From Patescibacteria group bacterium (GTDB lineage: Bacteria > Patescibacteriota > Minisyncoccia > Moranbacterales > UBA2206), in the NCBI GenBank assembly GCA_022709735.1, contig JAKLIG010000002.1, forward strand, positions 65,949 to 129,948: a stretch of DNA of 64,000 nt, written 5' to 3'. Position numbers and translations under genes: made by a program. A model generated the notes under the pieces. That model saw only the letters and a list, made by a program, of their open reading frames with translations, was not told the origin of the DNA and ran no database searches. Shown one piece after another: positions 3,302 to 29,740 of the stretch (position 1 is the first letter of the stretch; every line of letters begins with the position of its first letter).

Positions 3302-3350
3302 AGAGGCAAAGGCGGGCAGGTATCCGTTGAACTACAGGGACAGAATTATT

Positions 3351-11091: not shown

Positions 11092-13563
11092 TTATAGCAC
11101 AGTCGAGGCAGAAACTTTGTCCCCAGCTTGCGGTCTCATAACTCTCACTCCTTGCGTTGCTCGTCCAAGAACAGAAACGCTTCCCAGCGGAATTCTAATG
11201 ATTTGGCCTTTCTCGGAAGTGAGAATTAGATCAGTATCGAGCGCGTCCATATTGATAATTGTTGCGCCGACTATTTTTCCAGTCTTCGAAGTAACGGAAG
11301 CAGTTTTTATTCCCGAGCCTCCGCGCTTTTGCACTTTGTAGAATTTCAGATCTGATCTTTTGCCAAAACCATTTTCAGAAATTGTCAGAAGCTGGTTGCC
11401 TTTTTGATTTTTGAAAACCACATCCATTCCCACGACCTTGTCATCTTTCTTAAGTTTTATTCCACGCACTCCCGCCGCATTTCTTCCCATCGAACGAACA
11501 TCCGATTCTTTGAATCTAATCGCTTGACCATTTTTGGTAGTGATGACAATTTCATCTGTTCCGGTGGTCGCTTCCACCCAGCTAAGCATATCGCCCTTTT
11601 CAAGCTTGATCGCAATTAGTCCAGAACGGCGAACATTTTCAAATTCATCCAAGGTAGTTTTTTTGACTGTTCCCATTTCAGTTGTCATAAAGAAAAATTT
11701 ATAATTGTCATCTTTGTTGAAAGCGATAATCGCGGTGACACTTTCTTCTTGAGAAAGTGAGAGGAAGTTCACGATTGATTGACCCTTGGCGATTCTGGTT
11801 GATTCCGGAATTTCATAAGCTTTCGTTTGAAAAACTTTTCCACTGTTAGTGAAAAATAGCAAATTATCATGCGTCATTACGCCGAGCATTTTTTGAATCT
11901 CATCGCCCTCTCTTGTTGTCGCGCCAATCACGCCTTTGCCTCCGCGCTTTTGCACTTTGTAGACGCTTGGGTTCATTCTTTTTACATAGCCATCCTTAGA
12001 AAGAGTGATGATTGCTTCTTCATTCGGGACGAGATCTTCTTGTTTGAATTCGCCCACACCTGATTTTATCACTTTCGTTTTTCGCTCATCGCCATATTTT
12101 TCTTTGACGCGTGTTAATTCATCTTTGATAATTCCAAATATTTTTTTCTCGCTTTTTAGAATTGCTTCAAGTTCGGCGATGAGTTTTATTTTTTCCGCTA
12201 ATTCATCTTCAATCTTTTTTCGTTCGAGTCCAGCCAGAGTTTGCAGTTTCATTTCCAAAATTGCCGTGGCTTGTTTTTCCGACAATTTGAATTTCTTCAT
12301 CAAATTCTTATGCGCTTCTTCTTTCGTCCCCGATTTTTTGATTGTTTCAATCACCGCGTCAATATGATCCAAGGCAATTTTGAGTCCTTCCAAGATATGC
12401 GCTCGATCTCGCGCTTTTTCTAAATCAAATTTAGTGCGTCTCACAATTACAATTTTTCGATGCGCAATATATTCTTCCAAGATAGCTTTTAAATTCAAAA
12501 CTTTTGGTTCGATGCCGTTAACGAGCGCCAGCATATTCACACCAAAATTTTTCTGAAGATCAGTCAGTGAATATAATTTATTCAAAACTTTTTGCGGATA
12601 AGCATCTTTTTTGAGATCAACGACAATTCGCACACCTTCCTTGTCAGATTCATCACGAAGATCTTTTATTCCGACAATTTTTCCTTCATGCACAAGATTG
12701 GCAATATTTTCAATAAGCGTTGATTTGTTGGTCGCATAAGTAATCTCGCTAATTATAATTTGAAATGCGCCAGTCTTAGTTTCTACGATATCCGCTTTCC
12801 CACGGGTCAAAATTTTTCCGCGTCCGGTTTTGTAAGCTTCTAAAATATCTCGCTTGTTATAAATTATTCCGCCCGTTGGAAAATCTGGGCCTTTAATAAA
12901 TTCAGCGAGCTCTTCAACGGTTGCCTCGGAATTATCAATCAGATGATTTATGCCATCGATAAGTTCCGAAAGATTATGTGGAGGAATGTTGGTCGCCATT
13001 CCAACTGCGATTCCCATCGAACCGTTAAGTAGAAGTTGGGGAAGTCCGGCTGGGAGAACTGTTGGTTCTTTATGCTGGCCATCAAAATTCGGCACGAAAT
13101 CTACCGTATCTTTTTCAATATCCACTAGCATCTCTTCCGCCATTTGCGAAAGTTTGGCTTCTGTATAACGATAAGCGGCTGGGCCATCGCCGTCCATTGA
13201 GCCAAAGTTTCCTTGTCCTTTCACCATTGGATAGCGAAGAGAGAAATCTTGCGCCATTCGAACCATTGAGTCATAAACCGCGACATCGCCGTGTGGGTGG
13301 TATTTTCCAAGCACTTCTCCAACAACAGTGGCTGATTTTCGAAATTTGGCGTTCGCGCGAAGCCCAGTGTTCCACATGGAATAGAGAATTCTTCGATGAA
13401 CTGGCTTCAAACCGTCCCTAACATCCGGCAGAGCACGGGACACAATCACGCTCATGGCATAATCTAAATAGGATTGCTGGATTTCAAGAGTAATTTCGCG
13501 ATTTTGAACATTTTTTTCTCCCTCGTTAGAAATATTTTGTATAGATTTTTTTTCTTCTGACAT
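11092..13563 (-). CDS. gyrA: DNA gyrase subunit A
   Basis: Carries [21 protein letters not shown], the AAYRYTE region of the catalytic Tyr, and C-terminal beta-pinwheel repeats. 823 aa. Confidence 0.95.
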
Positions 13564-13853: not shown

Positions 13854-14519
13854 TTATTCGATATCCATCACAATAACTTCCATTTCTTTTCCTTCCAAGT
13901 CTTTTTTCTTGATATTAATCTTGGAAACTTTTTCTCTCGGACAATTTCCGATTTCACTGCAGAATTTTTTCTCATCATCAATCTTAATATCCGACGCCGT
14001 ATCTTTCATTTTATAGTGTATTGGGATAATTATTTTCGGTTCAATTTTTTTGGCAATTTCTACCGCTTTTTTGCCGTCAATTGTATAATTTCCCCCAATC
14101 GGAATCATAAGCACATCGATACCATTAATTTTTTCCAGTTGATTTTCGCTAAGATCCGTTCCGAGATCGCCCAAATGGCAAATGCGTAAATCTTCTGATT
14201 CTAAAATATAAATCGTGTTTATTCCATGCTCCGCTCCGTTTTTTTCATCATGAAATGAAGGAATGCCAATAACATTCACCCCCTTAGCACTGTATTCACC
14301 AGGAATATCAATCACATACGGCTCGCCTTTCAGCGCCTCTACATTATTATGATCATGATGAGCGTGGCTTACTAAAACTAAATCGGCCTGGCCTTGCGGA
14401 GGGCGAAGCCCGACAGATTTGTCGAAAGGATCAAAAAAAATCGCGATATCTTCTTTGCCTCTTCCAGCTGGTTTTGTGGTTATTTTAAAGCAAGAATGGC
14501 CGTAATATTGAATGTTCAT
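13854..14519 (-). CDS. MBL-fold metallo-hydrolase
   Basis: Carries the HxHxDH motif (VSHAHHDHNN) plus downstream His/Asp ligands typical of UPF0173-type MBL proteins. Confidence 0.7.
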   Translation of the reverse strand: MNIQYYGHSCFKITTKPAGRGKEDIAIFFDPFDKSVGLRPPQGQADLVLVSHAHHDHNNVEALKGEPYVIDIPGEYSAKGVNVIGIPSFHDEKNGAEHGINTIYILESEDLRICHLGDLGTDLSENQLEKINGIDVLMIPIGGNYTIDGKKAVEIAKKIEPKIIIPIHYKMKDTASDIKIDDEKKFCSEIGNCPREKVSKINIKKKDLEGKEMEVIVMDIE

Positions 14520-14728
14520 AAAATTGAGAATTAAGAAGTATGAATTAAGAAGAAAGCATAAAATAGTATGCTTTTTTACTAACTCATTTTAGCACGGAGA
14601 AAAAGAGTTGTCGAGATTTGACAAATTGTTATTTAGCCTTTAAATTTATTATCAGTTCATTTATTTAGTTTTTGGGATTAATTATCAGCTAACCGTAATT
14701 TTTTAAGAATTAAGAGGAGACGACACGC

Positions 14729-14956
14729 ATGGAGAAAAATAACCCAAAATGTAATTTAAGAGGGAATGCCTGCAAAAAAAAGCAGGCTAAAAAAAATCAG
14801 GATTGCCAGGGTTGCATCAAAAGATTATATGATGATAGTGGTATGAAAGTTGCACCAACCGCAACCATAATGCCAACTCACATCATTGATACGTTGTTCA
14901 GATCCTCCAGAGAAGAAAGGATTTGTCATAAAACGCCTTTCCGCAAGTATGCCTAA
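14729..14956 (+). CDS. Cys-rich, Lys-rich small protein (75 aa)
   Basis: Strong SD (aagaggagacgacacgcATG). Carries CNLRGNACKKKQAKKNQDCQGC. A hairpin+T terminator follows at ~15009-15052. Confidence 0.4.
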   Translation: MEKNNPKCNLRGNACKKKQAKKNQDCQGCIKRLYDDSGMKVAPTATIMPTHIIDTLFRSSREERICHKTPFRKYA

Positions 14957-15145
14957 TCACGCTTAATTTCGTTGGAAAATATGCCTGCTGATAATTATCC
15001 CGAACCGACCAGTGGTCTTGATCCCAAAAGGAGAGAGACTACTGGTTTTTTATTTCCAATATTTGACTTTTCGCCATTTTCCCGCTAAATTATTGTCAGT
15101 TAAGTGGTTCGTTAACAATTTAAGCTTCATTTGAAAGGAGGACAT

Positions 15146-15286
15146 ATGAAGCCGTGGTGTAAGAAATATGAGATGTCTATTCCGAATGAAAAAGTAAAAA
15201 ATCAGTGTTCTTTGCATAATCACCATCGTGGCTGTATAAATCTCATAAAGAAAAGAAGGGTAAAAAATAGAAAAAAGTTTTATTAA
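15146..15286 (+). CDS. Cys-rich cationic mini-ORF (46 aa, MKPWCKKYEMSIPNEKVKNQCSLHNHHRGCINLIKKRRVKNRKKFY), absent from the ORF track
   Basis: Read by eye. A consensus SD (gaaaggaggacatATG) sits 8 nt upstream. Confidence 0.35.
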   Translation: MKPWCKKYEMSIPNEKVKNQCSLHNHHRGCINLIKKRRVKNRKKFY

Positions 15287-15309
15287 TCTTTTTTTGGATG
15301 AAGGAGGGC

Positions 15310-15435
15310 ATGAGAATTATGGCAAAAAAAGTGAATGTGACTCCAAGAGATTGCAAAAAACCAAAGAATGGCGAATGTGGCAGATATGCATATTGTATAG
15401 GCTGCCCGAAAAACAACCTGAAGAAAAGGAAATGA
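15310..15435 (+). CDS. Cys-rich cationic mini-ORF (41 aa, MRIMAKKVNVTPRDCKKPKNGECGRYAYCIGCPKNNLKKRK), absent from the ORF track
   Basis: Read by eye. SD gaaggagggcATGagaattATG. Ends 12 nt before the decarboxylase-like gene. Confidence 0.35.
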   Translation: MRIMAKKVNVTPRDCKKPKNGECGRYAYCIGCPKNNLKKRK

Positions 15436-15447
15436 AAGGAAAAAGTC

Positions 15448-16599
15448 ATGACTAAACAAACAAATTTACCACCAATGGTTGTAAAGCACGCCCATGTGGA
15501 ACTGGCTGAAGCTCAAAGAGTACAAAAAACTCTTCTGGCGCCCGGCCCATGTCCTCATCTTTTCGAAGGACGCCAAAAAAATATTGCTGTTTATGGCTTG
15601 ATATCAAAGGGTCCGGAATTTGAATTCTACGATGCCCTGCTTGCCATGACCAATATGAAAGATCCGCTTTCCCGTCGTCTCATGGCAGGCATTATGGCCG
15701 CCGCCGAAATTTACACTAAAAGAATGATCCAGATCTGGGTCGAACTCTGCAACCTGAGAACCTTTAAAGACCAGGACGGCGTTTACCAGAAATGGGGACC
15801 GGCGGGAGATTTTATGATGATGCGGATTATGGATTATGTGCGGGAGCTCGAGAAAAAACACAACATTCGCATTATCTGCCAGCATGATTGCAAACGTGGC
15901 GACCTCGGTGCAACAATGATCGGTTATTACGACCGATTCATCGGAAATCTCAGCTCTTCGCTGGAAATCGGCCATGCTTTCCTCGGTTATGATACTATGA
16001 ATATACAGCTGTACATGGGGAGCGATGTCCTCATGCTGAAGGAAGTGCAGAAGAAAAATTACATCCCAGCGCACGGTTTAAAGCTTATGCGTGAAAAGGG
16101 GAAGGGAATAATTGTCGTTGATAAAACTTCCAACGACAGTGGCCCCGAATACCAACAGCTGTTTATCCCGAAACGCGGCAGAACTCTGGAAGAATGCGTG
16201 GCAGAAGATATCAATTCATTGGCCGAATACTATGGCCTGGTTTATGACGAACTGTCCCCACTTGGTCTTGTCGTAGGCTCAACACATCAAGCTAATGGGA
16301 TGCTGCGTTTATTGTTCCCCACGGGCACATGGTGGGTCCCCGGCTATGGAAATCAGGGCGGAAAATTCGAAAATATTATGCTTGAGCTTATCCGAGAAGG
16401 TAAATGGTGCGGGCAGGGCGCCACATTTACCAATGAAACCGGCATGATGTATGTGTGGATGGAAAATCAAGGCGGCACCGGGAAGATCCATGATGCAGAA
16501 ATGCTATCAATATCAGCAACAAAAAAATTTCAGGAAGCTGAATATAAAGCTTATCAGACGCCGGAAGTAAAGGCGGCCGGAATTCGGTATCCATTTTAA
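15448..16599 (+). CDS. orotidine-5'-phosphate decarboxylase suprafamily enzyme (type-2 PyrF-like) with ~110-aa N-terminal extension
   Basis: HDCKRGDLGATM matches the D-x-K-R-G-D-I-G-x-T catalytic motif. Downstream blocks IIVVDKTSNDSG, LGLVVGSTHQA and WWVPGYGNQGG align with the TSNP, VVGAT and PGVG-QGG blocks of type-2 OMPDCs. Local GC is clearly higher than the flanks. Confidence 0.55.
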   Translation: MTKQTNLPPMVVKHAHVELAEAQRVQKTLLAPGPCPHLFEGRQKNIAVYGLISKGPEFEFYDALLAMTNMKDPLSRRLMAGIMAAAEIYTKRMIQIWVELCNLRTFKDQDGVYQKWGPAGDFMMMRIMDYVRELEKKHNIRIICQHDCKRGDLGATMIGYYDRFIGNLSSSLEIGHAFLGYDTMNIQLYMGSDVLMLKEVQKKNYIPAHGLKLMREKGKGIIVVDKTSNDSGPEYQQLFIPKRGRTLEECVAEDINSLAEYYGLVYDELSPLGLVVGSTHQANGMLRLLFPTGTWWVPGYGNQGGKFENIMLELIREGKWCGQGATFTNETGMMYVWMENQGGTGKIHDAEMLSISATKKFQEAEYKAYQTPEVKAAGIRYPF

Positions 16600-16650
16600 A
16601 AAATGGGAATGGATCGTATTAACAATATACCGAATACTCAACCCGCACGA

Positions 16651-16712
16651 CTTAGCAGAATTAAGGAGGAAATATTCTGCAAAAGTCGTGTGGGTTGATT
16701 TTTTTTACCAAA
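16651..16712 (+). terminator. rho-independent terminator closing the GC-shifted island
   Basis: caacccgcacgactt...aagtcgtgtgggttg is a 15-bp inverted repeat followed by attttttttt. Confidence 0.55.
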
Positions 16713-16842
16713 ATTTGACATAATTCAATTTTTAAATTACAATGATTTTACAGTTAATTATTAAGAAAATTGAATAGGGAATGCTTTAATTCCCATATCG
16801 TCTTTCTTAATAATTTCCTTTAATTAGGGAATTTTTTAATTT

Positions 16843-16928
16843 TACGAACTACGAAATGAACGAAATACGAAACATTTAAACTACCTTTCGTACTTTCGTA
16901 TTTAGTATTTATTTCGTAGTTCGTAAAC
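16843..16928. promoter_or_regulatory. conserved upstream element (inverted pair of the TTTCGTATTTCGTTCATTTCGTAGTTCGTAAA family) immediately 5' of rpsA
   Basis: The same ~32-nt motif is also found at 19865-19898 (5' of ftsH) and 35985-36031 (5' of the YraN gene). Confidence 0.5.
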
Positions 16929-16936
16929 AAAATACT

Positions 16937-18256
16937 ATGTCAGACATTTTAGACAATCTCGCCAAAGAAGTGGATAAACTTTCCGAAGAAACTGCTTCTC
17001 CTAGCAAAAAAGTTTCGAAAGAAACAGAAAAGGAAATCCCGGAAGATAATTCCGTGATGAGCAACCTTCTTTCCAAGGGCTCTTTTCATTTTCCAAAAGT
17101 CAGCGACACAATTGATGGAAAAGTAATTTATGTTTCTTCCAATGAAATATATCTTGATCTTCCGCCGTTTGGCACTGGAATCGTTTTGGGAAAAGAAATA
17201 AAAGATGGCCTCGGAAGTGGAAAGTTGAAAATTGGAGACACAGTGAATGCCACGATAATTGATATGGAGAATGAAAATGGCTATATTGAGCTTTCTATCC
17301 GTGAAGCATCTTGCGAAAAAGCTTGGGATGATTTGGAAAGCAAACGAGACACGCAAGAAAAAGTGAACATAAAAGTGCTTAGCGCCAATAAAGGCGGGCT
17401 TTTAGTGGAAGTTAACAGTATTTCCGGATTTTTGCCAGTTTCCCAACTTTCCGGCAAGAATTATCCTCGAGTAGAAGACGGCGATAAGAATAAAATTTTG
17501 AATCTTCTCAAAAAACTCATTGGTCAAGAATTGGAAGTTCGAATAATTGACGCTGATCGAGAAACAGAAAAACTTATCGTGAGCGAAAAAGCCGCGCAGA
17601 GCGAAAAAGACATGGAAGTAATTTCCGCGCTTAATGTCGGCGACACCGTGAGCGGAGAAATCAGCGGAGTAGTTGATTTTGGAGCATTCGTTAAGTTTTC
17701 AATAAAAGAAAATGACAGTGAAAGAAAGCTAGAAGGATTGGTTCATATTTCCGAACTCGCTTGGCAACTTATTGAAGATCCGCGAACAATTGTGAAAGTC
17801 GGCGACAAAGTGAGCGCCAAAATTATCGGCATTGATGGCGATAAAATTTCGCTTTCTATCCGCGCGCTTCAAGAAGATCCTTGGTCAAATATCGCAGAAA
17901 AATATAAAAAAGGCGACATCGTTTCCGGAACAGTTAATAAAATTAATCATTTCGGCGCATTTGTATATCTCGACAAAGATATTCATGGCTTGGCTCACAT
18001 CAGCGAAATGTCAGAAAATTATCCTGGAAAAAGCCTAAACGAACTTATCAAGGCCGGCGAAAAATATAATTGGGAAATTCTTTCTATTGAACCAAAAGAG
18101 CATCGCATGGGACTCGTTCTAGCAAAAGATAAGAAAAAGAAAAAAGAAAAGGAAGAAAAAGTTGAGAAGGAAGAAGTTGGAGAAGAAAAAGAAATTAAGA
18201 AAGAAAAGAAAGAGAAAAAAGAAGCCAAGAAAAAAAGTAAAAAGAAAGAAGAATAA
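16937..18256 (+). CDS. rpsA: 30S ribosomal protein S1 (short form) with Lys/Glu-rich C-terminal tail
   Basis: Several S1 RNA-binding domains (e.g. GTVNKINHFGAFVYLDKDIHGLAHISEMS). 439 aa. Confidence 0.8.
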   Translation: MSDILDNLAKEVDKLSEETASPSKKVSKETEKEIPEDNSVMSNLLSKGSFHFPKVSDTIDGKVIYVSSNEIYLDLPPFGTGIVLGKEIKDGLGSGKLKIGDTVNATIIDMENENGYIELSIREASCEKAWDDLESKRDTQEKVNIKVLSANKGGLLVEVNSISGFLPVSQLSGKNYPRVEDGDKNKILNLLKKLIGQELEVRIIDADRETEKLIVSEKAAQSEKDMEVISALNVGDTVSGEISGVVDFGAFVKFSIKENDSERKLEGLVHISELAWQLIEDPRTIVKVGDKVSAKIIGIDGDKISLSIRALQEDPWSNIAEKYKKGDIVSGTVNKINHFGAFVYLDKDIHGLAHISEMSENYPGKSLNELIKAGEKYNWEILSIEPKEHRMGLVLAKDKKKKKEKEEKVEKEEVGEEKEIKKEKKEKKEAKKKSKKKEE

Positions 18257-18266
18257 AAAATTTAAA

Positions 18267-18830
18267 ATGATTATTTCTTTCAACGGAGATCATGGCTCCG
18301 GAAAAAGCACTGTTGCTAAAATGGTAGCAGAAAAGTTGAGCTATCCCAGATATTATATGGGACAAATTTTTCGTGATTTAGCAGAAAAAGAAGGGCTGAA
18401 TTTAGCAGAATTTCAGAATTTGTGTAAAAAAAATTCTTGGGCAGACAAACAAGTAGATGATTATTTAATGGAGCTTCCAAAAAAAGAAAAGAATTTTGTT
18501 ATAGAAAGTAGGACTGCTTGGCATTTTATTCCTGATTCTCTAAAAATTTATTTAAAAGTTAGTGAGAAGGAAGGTGCTAAAAGAATTCTAAAGGAAATAG
18601 AAAAAAATAGCCTTAGAAATAAAGAGGACTTTAATTTAAATTCCATAGAGAATATAATCGCTAGTGAAAAAGCCAGAAAAGATAGAGATGATGAACGCTA
18701 TCAAAAATATTATGGAATAAAAATCCGTAATGAAGCTAACTATGACTTCGCGTTAGATACAACCAAACTAACAGTTGAGGAAGTTTTTAAAAAAGTAATG
18801 ACTTTCATCGAATCAAAAATAAATAATTAA
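18267..18830 (+). CDS. cmk: cytidylate kinase
   Basis: IISFNGDHGSGKSTVAKMVAEKL P-loop at the N-terminus. The likely true start is the ATG at ~18267. The track ORF start at 18162 overlaps the rpsA tail. Confidence 0.8.
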   Translation: MIISFNGDHGSGKSTVAKMVAEKLSYPRYYMGQIFRDLAEKEGLNLAEFQNLCKKNSWADKQVDDYLMELPKKEKNFVIESRTAWHFIPDSLKIYLKVSEKEGAKRILKEIEKNSLRNKEDFNLNSIENIIASEKARKDRDDERYQKYYGIKIRNEANYDFALDTTKLTVEEVFKKVMTFIESKINN

Positions 18831-23771: not shown

Positions 23772-24716
23772 TTATTTTCCCCTTCTTCTCGCGTGAAAGG
23801 CTTTGTGAATTTCCTTAAGATGTGGATTGGTAACATGAGTATAAATTTGCGTGGTGTTTATTGAGGCATGCCCGAGCATCGCTTGGACCGACCGAATATC
23901 CGCGCCGTTCATCAAAAGATCAGTCGCAAAAGAATGGCGAAGCGTATGCGGATGGACATCTTTCACAATCCCGGCTTTGACCGCATAATACTTCACGATT
24001 CGTTGAATAGACCTCGGGGTTAATCTCAAATTGTCAGATTTATTCTTATTTTTTTCTTTTTTACCCTCGAATTTTTTAAGCCCCGCGCTATCCCGCACAA
24101 AAAGCGCCGGATCAATGTCTTCTCTCTTTTTGAGATATTCGCAGAGCGCCCGAGAGGCCGTGTCAGAAATAAAAACCACTCTGATTTTATTTCCCTTGCC
24201 TCGAACACTCAATTCTCCGCTTTTTAGATTGAGTTTTTCTCGATCAATGCTAATGAGCTCGGAAACCCGAAGACCAGCCGAAAAAAGTAGCTCCAGAATT
24301 GCCCGATCACGAAGAGATTTGAAACTTACTCCGCTCGCTGCGCCCAAAATCCTTTCCACCTCGGCATTTTCCAAAAAATCTACCTCTCGTTCCGGCGTTT
24401 TCCCGATTTCCACCTTTTCCGCTTGAAGCGTTTTAACATCTCTTTTCGCCATATATTTCAAAAAACAACGAAGAGCAATAATATAATAATTTTGCGTAAT
24501 TTTCTTGAGATTTTGACCTTTTTCGTCGACAAAACGGTTGAGATATAGCCTAAAATTTCTAATTAAATCATCCGTGATTTCTCTTGGCTCTTCAATTTTT
24601 GCCCAAACTAAAAATTTTTCCAAATAACGATCATAATTTTCAATCGTTTTGGGCGACCGCTGTTTTTCCACCTCCAAATATTCAAGAAATTGCGTTTTAA
24701 GCTCTTTTAGCTTCAT
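23772..24716 (-). CDS. tyrosine site-specific recombinase (XerC/XerD family)
   Basis: C-terminal HTLRHSFATDLLMNGADIRSVQAMLGHASINTTQIYTHV carries the R-H-R-Y catalytic signature. The N-terminal core-binding domain is of XerD type. Confidence 0.8.
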   Translation of the reverse strand: MKLKELKTQFLEYLEVEKQRSPKTIENYDRYLEKFLVWAKIEEPREITDDLIRNFRLYLNRFVDEKGQNLKKITQNYYIIALRCFLKYMAKRDVKTLQAEKVEIGKTPEREVDFLENAEVERILGAASGVSFKSLRDRAILELLFSAGLRVSELISIDREKLNLKSGELSVRGKGNKIRVVFISDTASRALCEYLKKREDIDPALFVRDSAGLKKFEGKKEKNKNKSDNLRLTPRSIQRIVKYYAVKAGIVKDVHPHTLRHSFATDLLMNGADIRSVQAMLGHASINTTQIYTHVTNPHLKEIHKAFHARRRGK

Positions 24717-29242: not shown

Positions 29243-29740
29243 ATGAGTATTTATAAAGAACAACGCATCGGAGTCTTGGTGGACATTCAAAACCTCTACT
29301 ACAGCGCAAAAGTTTTGCACAAAAAAAAGGTTAACTTCGGGCAGATTCTGAAAGAAGCGGTGGGGGACAGAAAGCTCATCCGCGCGATTGCTTATGGGAT
29401 AAAAACCCTAGAAGGCCAAGAAGAAAAATTTTTCGAAGCTTTGGAAAAAGTCGGTTATGAAGTCAAAACCAAAGATCTTCAGATTTTTCCCGGAGGCGCC
29501 AAAAAAGGCGATTGGGATGTAGGCATTGCGATGGACGCGATAAAGATGTCAAAAAGTTTGGATGTGATTGTGCTTGTTGCCGGCGACGGAGATTACATTC
29601 CGCTCGTAAATTATATTCAATCCACCACCGGTTGCCGAGTGGAAGGAATTGCTTTTTTGGAATCAACCAGCAAAAAACTTGTGGAAGAATTAGATGACTT
29701 TTTGAACTTAAGCGAGAATAAAAAGAAGTTTTTGATTTAA
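29243..29740 (+). CDS. NYN-domain (LabA-like) protein
   Basis: IGVLVDIQNLYYS...VLVAGDGDYIPLV matches the NYN/LabA fold motifs. Confidence 0.6.
   Translation: MSIYKEQRIGVLVDIQNLYYSAKVLHKKKVNFGQILKEAVGDRKLIRAIAYGIKTLEGQEEKFFEALEKVGYEVKTKDLQIFPGGAKKGDWDVGIAMDAIKMSKSLDVIVLVAGDGDYIPLVNYIQSTTGCRVEGIAFLESTSKKLVEELDDFLNLSENKKKFLI

Follow-up and report, generated by a model that had tools for sequence, protein, structure and literature searches.

Type-2 orotidine-5'-phosphate (OMP) decarboxylases (OMPDC; PyrF; TIGR02127, PF00215), known from actinobacteria and apicomplexans, are TIM-barrel enzymes with structures in the PDB (3v75, 3r89, 4mjz, 2za1). In the pyrE-pyrF or uridine monophosphate (UMP) synthase module, an orotate phosphoribosyltransferase (OPRT) and an OMPDC together convert orotate via OMP to UMP. 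Patescibacteria are thought to be host-dependent for nucleotides, so that their route of pyrimidine supply is of practical interest. Here we describe a locus on a stretch of 64,000 nucleotides (nt) from a patescibacterium of the Moranbacterales (contig JAKLIG010000002.1; this 64-kb stretch is called the window, and positions count from its first letter). It consists of a gene for an enzyme of 383 amino acids (aa) with OMPDC fold and, upstream of it, three small open reading frames (ORFs) coding for Cys-rich, cationic mini-proteins (mini-ORF1 to mini-ORF3). The region is a genuine case of a known kind of enzyme, pyrF, usually found with pyrE, in an unusual, lineage-specific and previously unannotated form. 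With moderate confidence, we interpret it as a Patescibacteria-specific pyrF(-pyrE) salvage cassette with dedicated small Cys-rich companions that probably bind zinc and would regulate or couple pyrF expression.

A Patescibacterial Family of OMP Decarboxylases

The 383-aa enzyme (NCBI HRY82489.1, annotated as "hypothetical protein" of Ca. Moranbacteria) is a secure member of the OMPDC superfamily. The OMPDC sequence blocks reported in the preliminary description of this DNA are present, among them D-C-K-R-G-D-L-G-A-T, and the comparison with models of the OMPdecase, KGPDC, and HPS families that it had proposed returned OMPdecase/pyrF models only. The AlphaFold2 (AF2) model of the enzyme (predicted local distance difference test, pLDDT, 86.8; predicted template modeling score, pTM, 0.89) retrieved exclusively OMPDCs among the top 50 Foldseek matches in the PDB. 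Type-2 enzymes lead this list (4mjz, E=1.5e-13, TM to target 0.75), which includes no KGPDC or HPS structure. The lysine block of strand beta2 (F106-K107-D-Q109) and the beta3 motif (D147-C-K149-R-G-D152) are in place; the family alignment shows no variation at K107, D147, K149, and D152, and Q303 is retained. What had been taken for an N-terminal extension of about 110 aa contains no added domain. This region is made up of barrel strand beta1 (residues 30-32, with GPCPH replacing GLDPH) and a helical insertion ahead of beta2 (residues 42-100). Homologues with more than 36% identity were found in Patescibacteria only (Moranbacteria, Falkowbacteria, and unclassified bins), where about 11 GTDB species representatives carry them. 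Then follow ordinary type-2 PyrF proteins with approximately 27-30% identity.

The family falls into two subclades with perfectly co-varying motifs. Subclade B (n=15) is canonical, with GLDPH in beta1, FKPQ in beta2, LDCKRGD in beta3, SNPS in the TSN block, GAQ in the Gln loop, and SSSRG after beta8. The corresponding motifs of subclade A (n=27), to which the window enzyme belongs, are GPCPH, FKDQ, HDCKRGD, SNDS, GNQ, and xxETG. The beta1 Asp, conserved in all subclade-B sequences, is thus a Cys in all 27 members of subclade A, and in place of the phosphate-gripping Arg after beta8 the window enzyme has N-E-T331, which aligns with the S-S-R of subclade B and of PDB 3r89. None of the 21 subclade-specific positions holds a conserved basic residue that could compensate for this loss. 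In yeast OMPDC, D37 contacts the ribose 3'-OH, and the R235A exchange lowers kcat/Km 19,000-fold (PMC12874384). Since two OMP-binding residues are lost in the window's subclade, its substrate is uncertain. In keeping with an early suggestion, it may have a different substrate. With its altered substrate grip (Asp to Cys in beta1, Arg to Thr after beta8, and four further changes), it may hold its ligand in another way or use another nucleotide, and judged by sequence, the window's subclade is not established as an equivalent of canonical PyrF.

Phosphoribosyltransferase Partners

In about 30 of 45 related loci, a gene adjacent to the enzyme gene and on the same strand codes for a phosphoribosyltransferase (PRTase). 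The best NCBIfam matches of these proteins are always OPRT (pyrE) models, although the PRTases belong to at least five divergent types, of which one passes the pyrE cut-off and most remain below it. This pairing supports an ancestral orotate-to-OMP-to-UMP module, which would have turned salvaged orotate into UMP in organisms without the other steps of de novo synthesis. A conserved C-P-x-C motif ends three of the divergent OPRT-like types (ECPLCKQGS, VCPLCEAG, DCPLCKE; examples are L003 1732-2451, L005 6196-6936, and L015 5460-6209). The sequence of these C-termini suggests a metal site or a Cys pair, and no correlation between the C-P-x-C motif and the presence or absence of mini-ORFs was seen.

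In the syntenic locus L008, a PRTase gene lies between the enzyme gene and the conserved terminator, whereas the window and locus L093 lack the PRTase and have kept the terminator and the promoter and leader of the following S1-domain gene. Because the same terminator follows the PRTase gene in L008, either the window lineage underwent a clean loss of the PRTase or L008 acquired it. No PRTase remnant exists between the enzyme and S1 genes of the window. An alternative that we consider unlikely, but more probable than the others, is that the enzyme is not a working PyrF but a neofunctionalised or decaying OMPDC homologue in the remnant of a pyrF-pyrE locus whose PRTase was deleted. It would be in line with the PRTase distribution just described and with the six motif changes (C35 for Asp, D108, H146, D230, N302, and E330-T331 for Ser-Arg), whose co-variation is perfect throughout subclade A (27 of 27 sequences), and also with disrupted genes at related loci. 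The enzyme gene of L092 has an in-frame TAG (3325-3327) at the codon of the invariant Gln109 (FKDQ), that of L100 has an in-frame stop at approximately 3160, and the PRTase gene of L002 (6236-6956) is frameshifted but intact in L003, which encodes an identical enzyme. These disruptions could be real pseudogenes or assembly errors. However, the subclade-A ORFs are intact, and their identity of 64-76% with 60-odd invariant columns points to a maintained function. Moreover, most subclade-A loci retain an OPRT-like neighbor, and the catalytic residues K107, D147, K149, D152, and Q303 are kept.

Small Cys-Rich Genes Upstream of the Enzyme Gene

The three Cys-rich, cationic mini-ORFs with strong Shine-Dalgarno sequences, which the preliminary description had recognized, are genuine coding genes. 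They are under selection, mostly unannotated, and represent new microprotein families; all three are conserved in related genomes. Each is preceded by AGGAG or AGGAGG (AGGAG for mini-ORF1, AGGAGG for mini-ORF2). They are the sole intergenic ORFs in the window with at least three Cys and more than 20% Lys plus Arg (K+R), and their Cys content is 6.5-10.5% versus 0.65% in the window proteins. The mini-proteins have isoelectric points of about 10 and a grand average of hydropathy (GRAVY) of -1.0 to -1.3, and none of the three contains a signal peptide, hydrophobic segment, or leader feature. Of the originally proposed lengths of 75, 46, and 41 aa, the first two are correct; the product of mini-ORF3 has 38 aa, because the homologues show a start at MAKKV. 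Consistent with the absence of two mini-ORFs from the program-made ORF list, mini-ORF2 and mini-ORF3 have no gene call in a collection of 15 billion proteins.

Mini-ORF1 (5 Cys, 23% K+R) has the pattern C-x6-C-x10-C-x2-C followed by a less conserved tail. Among the 642 ORFs of the window with 25 or more aa, it was the sole significant match (E=3.7e-5) of a profile built from non-window sequences only. Its homologues (P0049-P0053 and a 67-aa ORF of locus L171) all lie 5' of OMPDC genes, and C8, C15, C26, and C29 align with the type-I homologues. Mini-ORF2 (3 Cys, 30% K+R) reads W-C-K-K...Q-C-x-L-H-N-x-H-x-G-C with a basic tail, so that conserved His residues accompany the three Cys. It is 46-54% identical to a 46-aa ORF directly 5' of the enzyme gene in the syntenic locus L092, which as query retrieved mini-ORF2 from all window ORFs (E=2e-11), and the dN/dS of this pair is approximately 0.28. 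A word-indexed search for further relatives of mini-ORF2 gave no candidates. Mini-ORF3 (4 Cys, 32% K+R; C-K-K-P-x4-C-G-R-Y-x-Y-C-I-G-C and a basic tail) has three true homologues with 81, 67, and 58% identity according to an exhaustive HMMER search of 1.84 billion representative proteins, all located 12-46 nt 5' of OMPDC-family genes; a fourth match was an unrelated repetitive protein. Purifying selection on the mini-ORF3 peptide is strong: in comparison with the 81% homologue (L171), 19 of 21.3 synonymous and 9 of 89.7 non-synonymous sites differ (pS 0.89, pN 0.10). C12, C20, C26, and C29 and the core G-[RK]-Y-x-[YF]-C-I-G-C are invariant in all four sequences. As a joint profile of all mini-ORF types did not recover the ORFs of the window (E=2.6 for mini-ORF1), the idea of a single superfamily was abandoned in favor of several families of the same kind.

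The association of these peptides with the enzyme, initially regarded as conceivable, is strongly supported by conserved adjacency. We searched 33 distinct, unbiased family loci for at least one same-strand ORF of 25-90 aa with four Cys that ends no more than 400 nt upstream of the enzyme gene. Such an ORF is present at 12 of the 33 loci versus 10 of 178 other genes (Fisher p=7e-6), and the latter ten include two split enzyme genes (with in-frame stops) and four cases of the ribosomal protein bL32. Conversely, every homologue found in reverse searches from the mini-ORFs lies directly 5' of an OMPDC-family gene in Patescibacteria (P0045-P0053 at loci L167-L169 and L091/L098-L100; P0054, P0056, and P0057 at L171 and L173-L175). 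No Cys-rich mini-ORFs precede the more distant pyrF loci, from the candidate phyla radiation (CPR) and others, with 27% identity (L019, L020, L123-L130).

The last mini-ORF and the enzyme gene are separated by 12 nt in the window, L092, L087, and L175, by 9-36 nt or an overlap in most other loci, and overlap in L167 and L168. The junction GAAATGAAAGGAAAAA(G/T)TCATG is common to the window and L092, where it follows a mini-ORF of the mini-ORF3 type and of the mini-ORF2 type, respectively. Its conservation despite the different preceding gene points to conserved translational coupling. The Shine-Dalgarno sequence of the enzyme gene is weak (AAAGGAAA), whereas those of the mini-ORFs are perfect. 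The number of mini-ORFs per locus varies from 0 to 3, and several mutually unalignable sequence types occupy the same position. On the short contig of L171 (149-1445), the 67-aa homologue of mini-ORF1 and an 81%-identical mini-ORF3 precede a canonical 301-aa type-2 PyrF (CVGLDPNPEKLP, FKPQ). This PyrF shares only 28% identity with the window enzyme, and its S-S-R motif has no Arg either (INSSSG).

Putative Role of the Mini-Proteins

The four invariant Cys suggest that a metal, probably zinc, organizes the fold of the mini-proteins, and these proteins may be devoted to regulating or coupling the expression of pyrF. They could do so by binding nucleic acids with their cationic tails, by coupling through termination and reinitiation, or in both ways. 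It is also conceivable, if rather improbable, that the mini-proteins are physical partners of the enzyme, such as zinc-stabilised subunits, chaperones, or inhibitors, whose stoichiometry would be set by translational coupling. This would recall, in concept, the zinc domain of PyrI that contacts PyrB. Their strict adjacency, the coupling-like spacing or overlap described above, and the purifying selection on the Cys scaffold would agree with such a function. However, the varying copy number and the unalignable types in one position are difficult to reconcile with it, as are the near-identical mini-ORF3 genes beside enzymes of just 28% identity, the separate transcription and termination of mini-ORF1, and the lack of mini-ORFs at more than half of the family loci. 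Dedicated regulators or couplers are preferred over a fixed subunit because the mini-ORFs vary in copy number and type, persist when the enzyme is swapped, and include one that is transcribed separately.

A more far-reaching combination, to which we likewise give little credence, is that the mini-proteins are new dedicated zinc-finger micro-regulators or micro-subunits and that, at the same time, the subclade-A enzyme is a neofunctionalised OMPDC. The mini-proteins would then form a class that is confined to Patescibacteria and missed by standard annotation. With Cys, His, Asp, Asp, Asn, and Glu around the active site in exchange for Asp and Arg, the enzyme would have acquired a more acidic, possibly metal-binding pocket, and it might require a metal or have a nucleotide different from OMP as its substrate. 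If true, this would imply a new step of nucleotide salvage or modification in ultra-small symbionts.

Another explanation, with a still smaller chance of being correct, regards the mini-ORFs mainly as cis-acting elements, either upstream ORFs or leader peptides, for which the act of translation itself would count. Translation would be sensitive to supply because of their Cys and Lys codons, translation of the enzyme would depend on termination-reinitiation, and the peptides would be by-products. The stop-to-start junction that is conserved whichever mini-ORF precedes, the contrast between the weak Shine-Dalgarno sequence of the enzyme gene and the perfect ones of the mini-ORFs, and the conserved block in the 5' untranslated region (UTR) of mini-ORF2 could be understood in this way. 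Purifying selection, however, extends over the entire peptide and affects residues other than Cys as well (G-R-Y-x-Y-C-I-G-C is invariant), and the terminator of mini-ORF1 rules out its coupling to the enzyme gene. In addition, Cys supply and pyrimidine synthesis have no logical link, and the hairpin at the start codon of mini-ORF2 is thermodynamically ordinary, its stability not exceeding that of shuffled sequence (z -0.2 and -0.8).

Several observations weigh against our preferred explanation of a pyrF(-pyrE) salvage cassette with regulatory companions. The window enzyme scores below the curated cut-offs of both Pfam OMPdecase PF00215 (24.2 bits versus a gathering cut-off of 27) and TIGR02127 pyrF_sub2 (78 versus 110.6 bits), and it has lost the beta1 Asp and the beta8 Arg. 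A tblastn search with ten PRTase neighbors from related loci found no pyrE-like PRTase in the window, and no other pyr genes occur among the 30 ORFs scanned, so the pathway context in this genome is unproven. The absence of mini-ORFs from most family loci implies that the mini-proteins are not essential to the enzyme. Pfam and NCBIfam gave no match to any mini-protein except one sub-threshold DUF1660 match, and the AF2 model of mini-ORF3 is of low confidence and uninformative (pLDDT 57, pTM 0.20).

Organization of the Locus

Promoter-like sites, inverted repeats, and RNA folding indicate two transcription units within 14618-16703 (Table 1). The first comprises the promoter-like site P1, mini-ORF1, and a terminator hairpin with a U-run. 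The preliminary description had thus correctly assigned mini-ORF1 a terminator of its own. The second unit consists of P2, mini-ORF2, mini-ORF3, the enzyme gene, and a long terminator hairpin. This hairpin, which had been noted as a strong terminator closing the region, is kept almost base for base in L093 and L008; its loop holds AAGGAGGAAAT, which resembles a Shine-Dalgarno site. P1 and P2 have the sequence TTGAC...TAAATT+ATTRTCAGTT in common, and the -35 block of P1 and a TAAATTATTAT(C/T)AG block are kept in L092.

Table 1. Positions of the features of the locus and of other genes in the window.
Feature	Position	Strand	Remarks
gyrA	11092-13563	-	
MBL-fold hydrolase gene	13854-14519	-	
Promoter-like site P1	14618-14646	+	TTGACA-17-TAAATT; 10/12 consensus matches; 5' of mini-ORF1
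CTGATAAT copies	14648-14655, 14681-14688, 14988-14995	-, -, +	Sole copies in the window
18-nt inverted repeat	14672-14689 / 14987-15004		Flanks mini-ORF1; holds two CTGATAAT copies
Mini-ORF1	14729-14956	+	75 aa; own transcription unit
Intrinsic terminator of mini-ORF1	15009-15052	+	Hairpin (15009-15047) with 13-bp stem, then UUUUUUAUUU (RNA fold)
Promoter-like site P2	15063-15091	+	TTGACT-17-TAAATT; would serve the mini-ORF2-mini-ORF3-enzyme operon
Mini-ORF2	15146-15286	+	46 aa
Mini-ORF3	15319-15435	+	38 aa; stop codon 12 nt ahead of the enzyme ATG
Gene of OMPDC-fold enzyme	15448-16599	+	383 aa
Long terminator hairpin	16633-16703	+	Inverted repeat closing the operon; AAGGAGG-containing loop
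Leader of S1 gene	16745-16936		Strongly structured (z -7.26)
First hairpin of S1 leader	~16756-16815		
Terminator-like stem-loop of S1 leader	~16816-16845		With U-run
Inverted repeat of S1 leader	16841-16860 / 16908-16927		20 nt, 95% complementary
Gene of S1-domain protein (rpsA-like)	16937-18256		
Cytidylate-kinase-family gene	18162-18830		Longest ORF overlaps the end of the S1 gene
Tyrosine recombinase gene	23772-24716	-	Phage-integrase family; N-terminal SAM-like domain
NYN-domain gene	29243-29740		GC3 0.458, second-highest in the window

The 8-mer CTGATAAT occurs three times in the window, every copy inside 14648-14995, and this clustering is real. An exact 10-mer version is confined to the two arms of the inverted repeat. 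In the predicted RNA fold (z-score -6.25), these arms join the 5' UTR of mini-ORF1 to its 3' UTR just ahead of the terminator. The third copy directly follows the -10 element of P1, and at the equivalent position P2 has the variant ATTGTCAG. The 8-mer is not present in L171. The paired motifs had been proposed to be operator half-sites; the repeat itself is confirmed, but pairing of the mini-ORF1 UTRs by the 18-nt inverted repeat offers an equal explanation, so that the copies can equally be operators or RNA-pairing elements. An interpretation as Fur/Zur-type boxes was dropped, as only single half-sites and no 7-1-7 palindrome exist.

Downstream of P2, a 5' UTR block at approximately 15105-15145 is about 90% conserved in L092. 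The 5' UTR of mini-ORF2 (GGTTCGTTAACAATT..AGCTTCAT..GAAAGGAGG; window 15105-15152, L092 2806-2855) is more conserved than the coding sequence, and a conserved GCUUCAU/AUGAAGC stem would enclose the Shine-Dalgarno sequence and start codon of mini-ORF2. An Rfam scan of 13.5-18 kb yielded two sub-threshold chance matches only and no riboswitch or PyrR-type element; the weak "MIR1444" match in the S1 leader is merely the leader's own hairpin. The first hairpin and the terminator-like element of this leader are conserved in L093 (4156-4690) and L008 (5891-6245), and the leader could be an autoregulatory attenuator. The S1 gene is followed by cmk, tilS, and ftsH. Neighborhoods of cmk and rpsA are classic, and a gene for a pyrimidine-nucleotide kinase thus lies about 1.6 kb from the pyrF-like gene. 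The tyrosine recombinase gene farther downstream may code for a XerC/D protein or the integrase of a mobile element.

Composition and History of the Locus

The enzyme gene is a compositional outlier, as had been noticed by eye. Its content of guanine plus cytosine (GC) of 0.465 and its GC at third codon positions (GC3) of 0.49 are the highest of 52 gene-like ORFs in the window (means 0.354, sd 0.042, and 0.311, sd 0.057, respectively). The GC shift, originally assigned to an island at 14.7-16.7 kb, is real for the enzyme gene and does not extend to the mini-ORF region, whose GC of 0.34 is native for the genome. The GC of the enzyme gene is also raised in 27 of 33 related loci, typically by 0.04 to 0.13, and the excess thus characterizes the gene family as a whole rather than this one genome. 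The order gyrA, 91-aa ORF, MBL-fold hydrolase gene, [mini-ORFs], enzyme gene, [PRTase gene], S1 gene is common to the window, L008, L092, and L093, showing that the site is old. A foreign island, as once envisaged, is contradicted by this order shared with three relatives, by the restriction of the enzyme clade to Patescibacteria, and by the family-wide GC increase. The suspected horizontal acquisition nevertheless probably holds in a narrower sense. According to its flanks, L092 is the closest relative of the window (gyrA 92%, MBL-fold hydrolase 84%), yet it has the most divergent enzyme of the group (64%), whereas the most similar enzymes are encoded at the non-syntenic loci L170 (76%) and L001 (75%). 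Together with the GC anomaly and the PyrF of L171, this incongruence suggests that the pyrF-type gene was repeatedly replaced at a stable locus. Judged from sequence comparison, the enzyme gene has likely been exchanged horizontally among Patescibacteria, which would explain its foreign GC.

That the locus is a horizontally acquired biosynthetic island whose peptides are precursors of ribosomally synthesized and post-translationally modified peptides (RiPPs) or secreted antimicrobials is very improbable: the peptides are Cys-rich, cationic, multi-copy, and fast-evolving and the enzyme has atypical GC, but signal peptides and hydrophobic segments are absent, no modification, protease, or export genes occur among the neighbors (MBL-fold, gyrA, S1, cmk, tilS, ftsH), the mini-ORF DNA has native GC, and synteny reveals an old site. 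A role in defence is likewise unsupported in this housekeeping neighborhood, and PADLOC found nothing meaningful for the enzyme, the mini-proteins, or the PRTases.

Comparison with Known Systems and Significance

A conserved pyrF(-pyrE) cassette suggests orotate salvage in some patescibacterial lineages. Its mini-genes, which are strongly conserved and were found at no other kind of site, are a clear example of functional small genes overlooked by gene callers, and the cassette is a tractable case of a microprotein tied to one enzyme. Subclade A, conserved yet without two textbook gripper residues of OMPDCs, represents a natural experiment on the OMPDC mechanism. Literature searches on pyrimidine salvage in CPR bacteria and on Cys-rich small proteins returned nothing relevant, and no description of Cys-rich mini-genes ahead of any pyr operon was found.

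With type-2 OMPDCs the window enzyme shares the TIM-barrel fold, the FKxQ lysine of beta2, the D-x-K-R-G-D of beta3, the TSN block, and the PG-x-G-x-QGG loop. It differs in its low identity (about 28% at best, and below both curated cut-offs), in a helical insertion (about 60 aa) that follows beta1, in a C-terminal extension of about 50 aa, and in the motif residues of its subclade, which include Cys for the beta1 Asp, Thr for the phosphate-gripping Arg, and four more changes. Its relatives show the usual pairing with an OPRT-like gene, whereas none adjoins the window enzyme. The one-strand arrangement of OMPDC and OPRT-like genes at about two thirds of the related loci is that of the pyrE-pyrF module. 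The multiple, mostly sub-cut-off PRTase types set these loci apart from it, and genes for earlier steps of the pathway were not found in the sequence examined.

A small metal-binding module dedicated to an enzyme of the pyrimidine pathway has a precedent in PyrI, the regulatory chain of aspartate transcarbamoylase. In PyrI, a small Cys4 zinc domain (C-x4-C-x23-C-x2-C) contacts PyrB, and a nucleotide-binding domain confers allostery. The resemblance is a conceptual analogy only; the Cys spacing differs, no sequence similarity was detected, and the mini-proteins are too small to contain an allosteric domain. In size and composition the mini-proteins resemble prokaryotic zinc-finger or zinc-ribbon microproteins and to the ribosomal proteins bL32 and bL36, which likewise have 35-75 aa, four conserved Cys including a CxxC, and a strongly basic character. 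Four invariant Cys with CxxC in a protein of less than 80 aa are found in mini-ORF1 and mini-ORF3, whereas mini-ORF2 has three Cys. The mini-proteins matched no Pfam or NCBIfam model, ribosomal families included, at E values up to 1-10, and true bL32 genes in related loci have distinct sequences. The mini-proteins differ from these microproteins and ribosomal proteins in their Cys spacing (C-x6/7-C-x5/10-C-x2-C) and in their strict linkage to a single metabolic gene.

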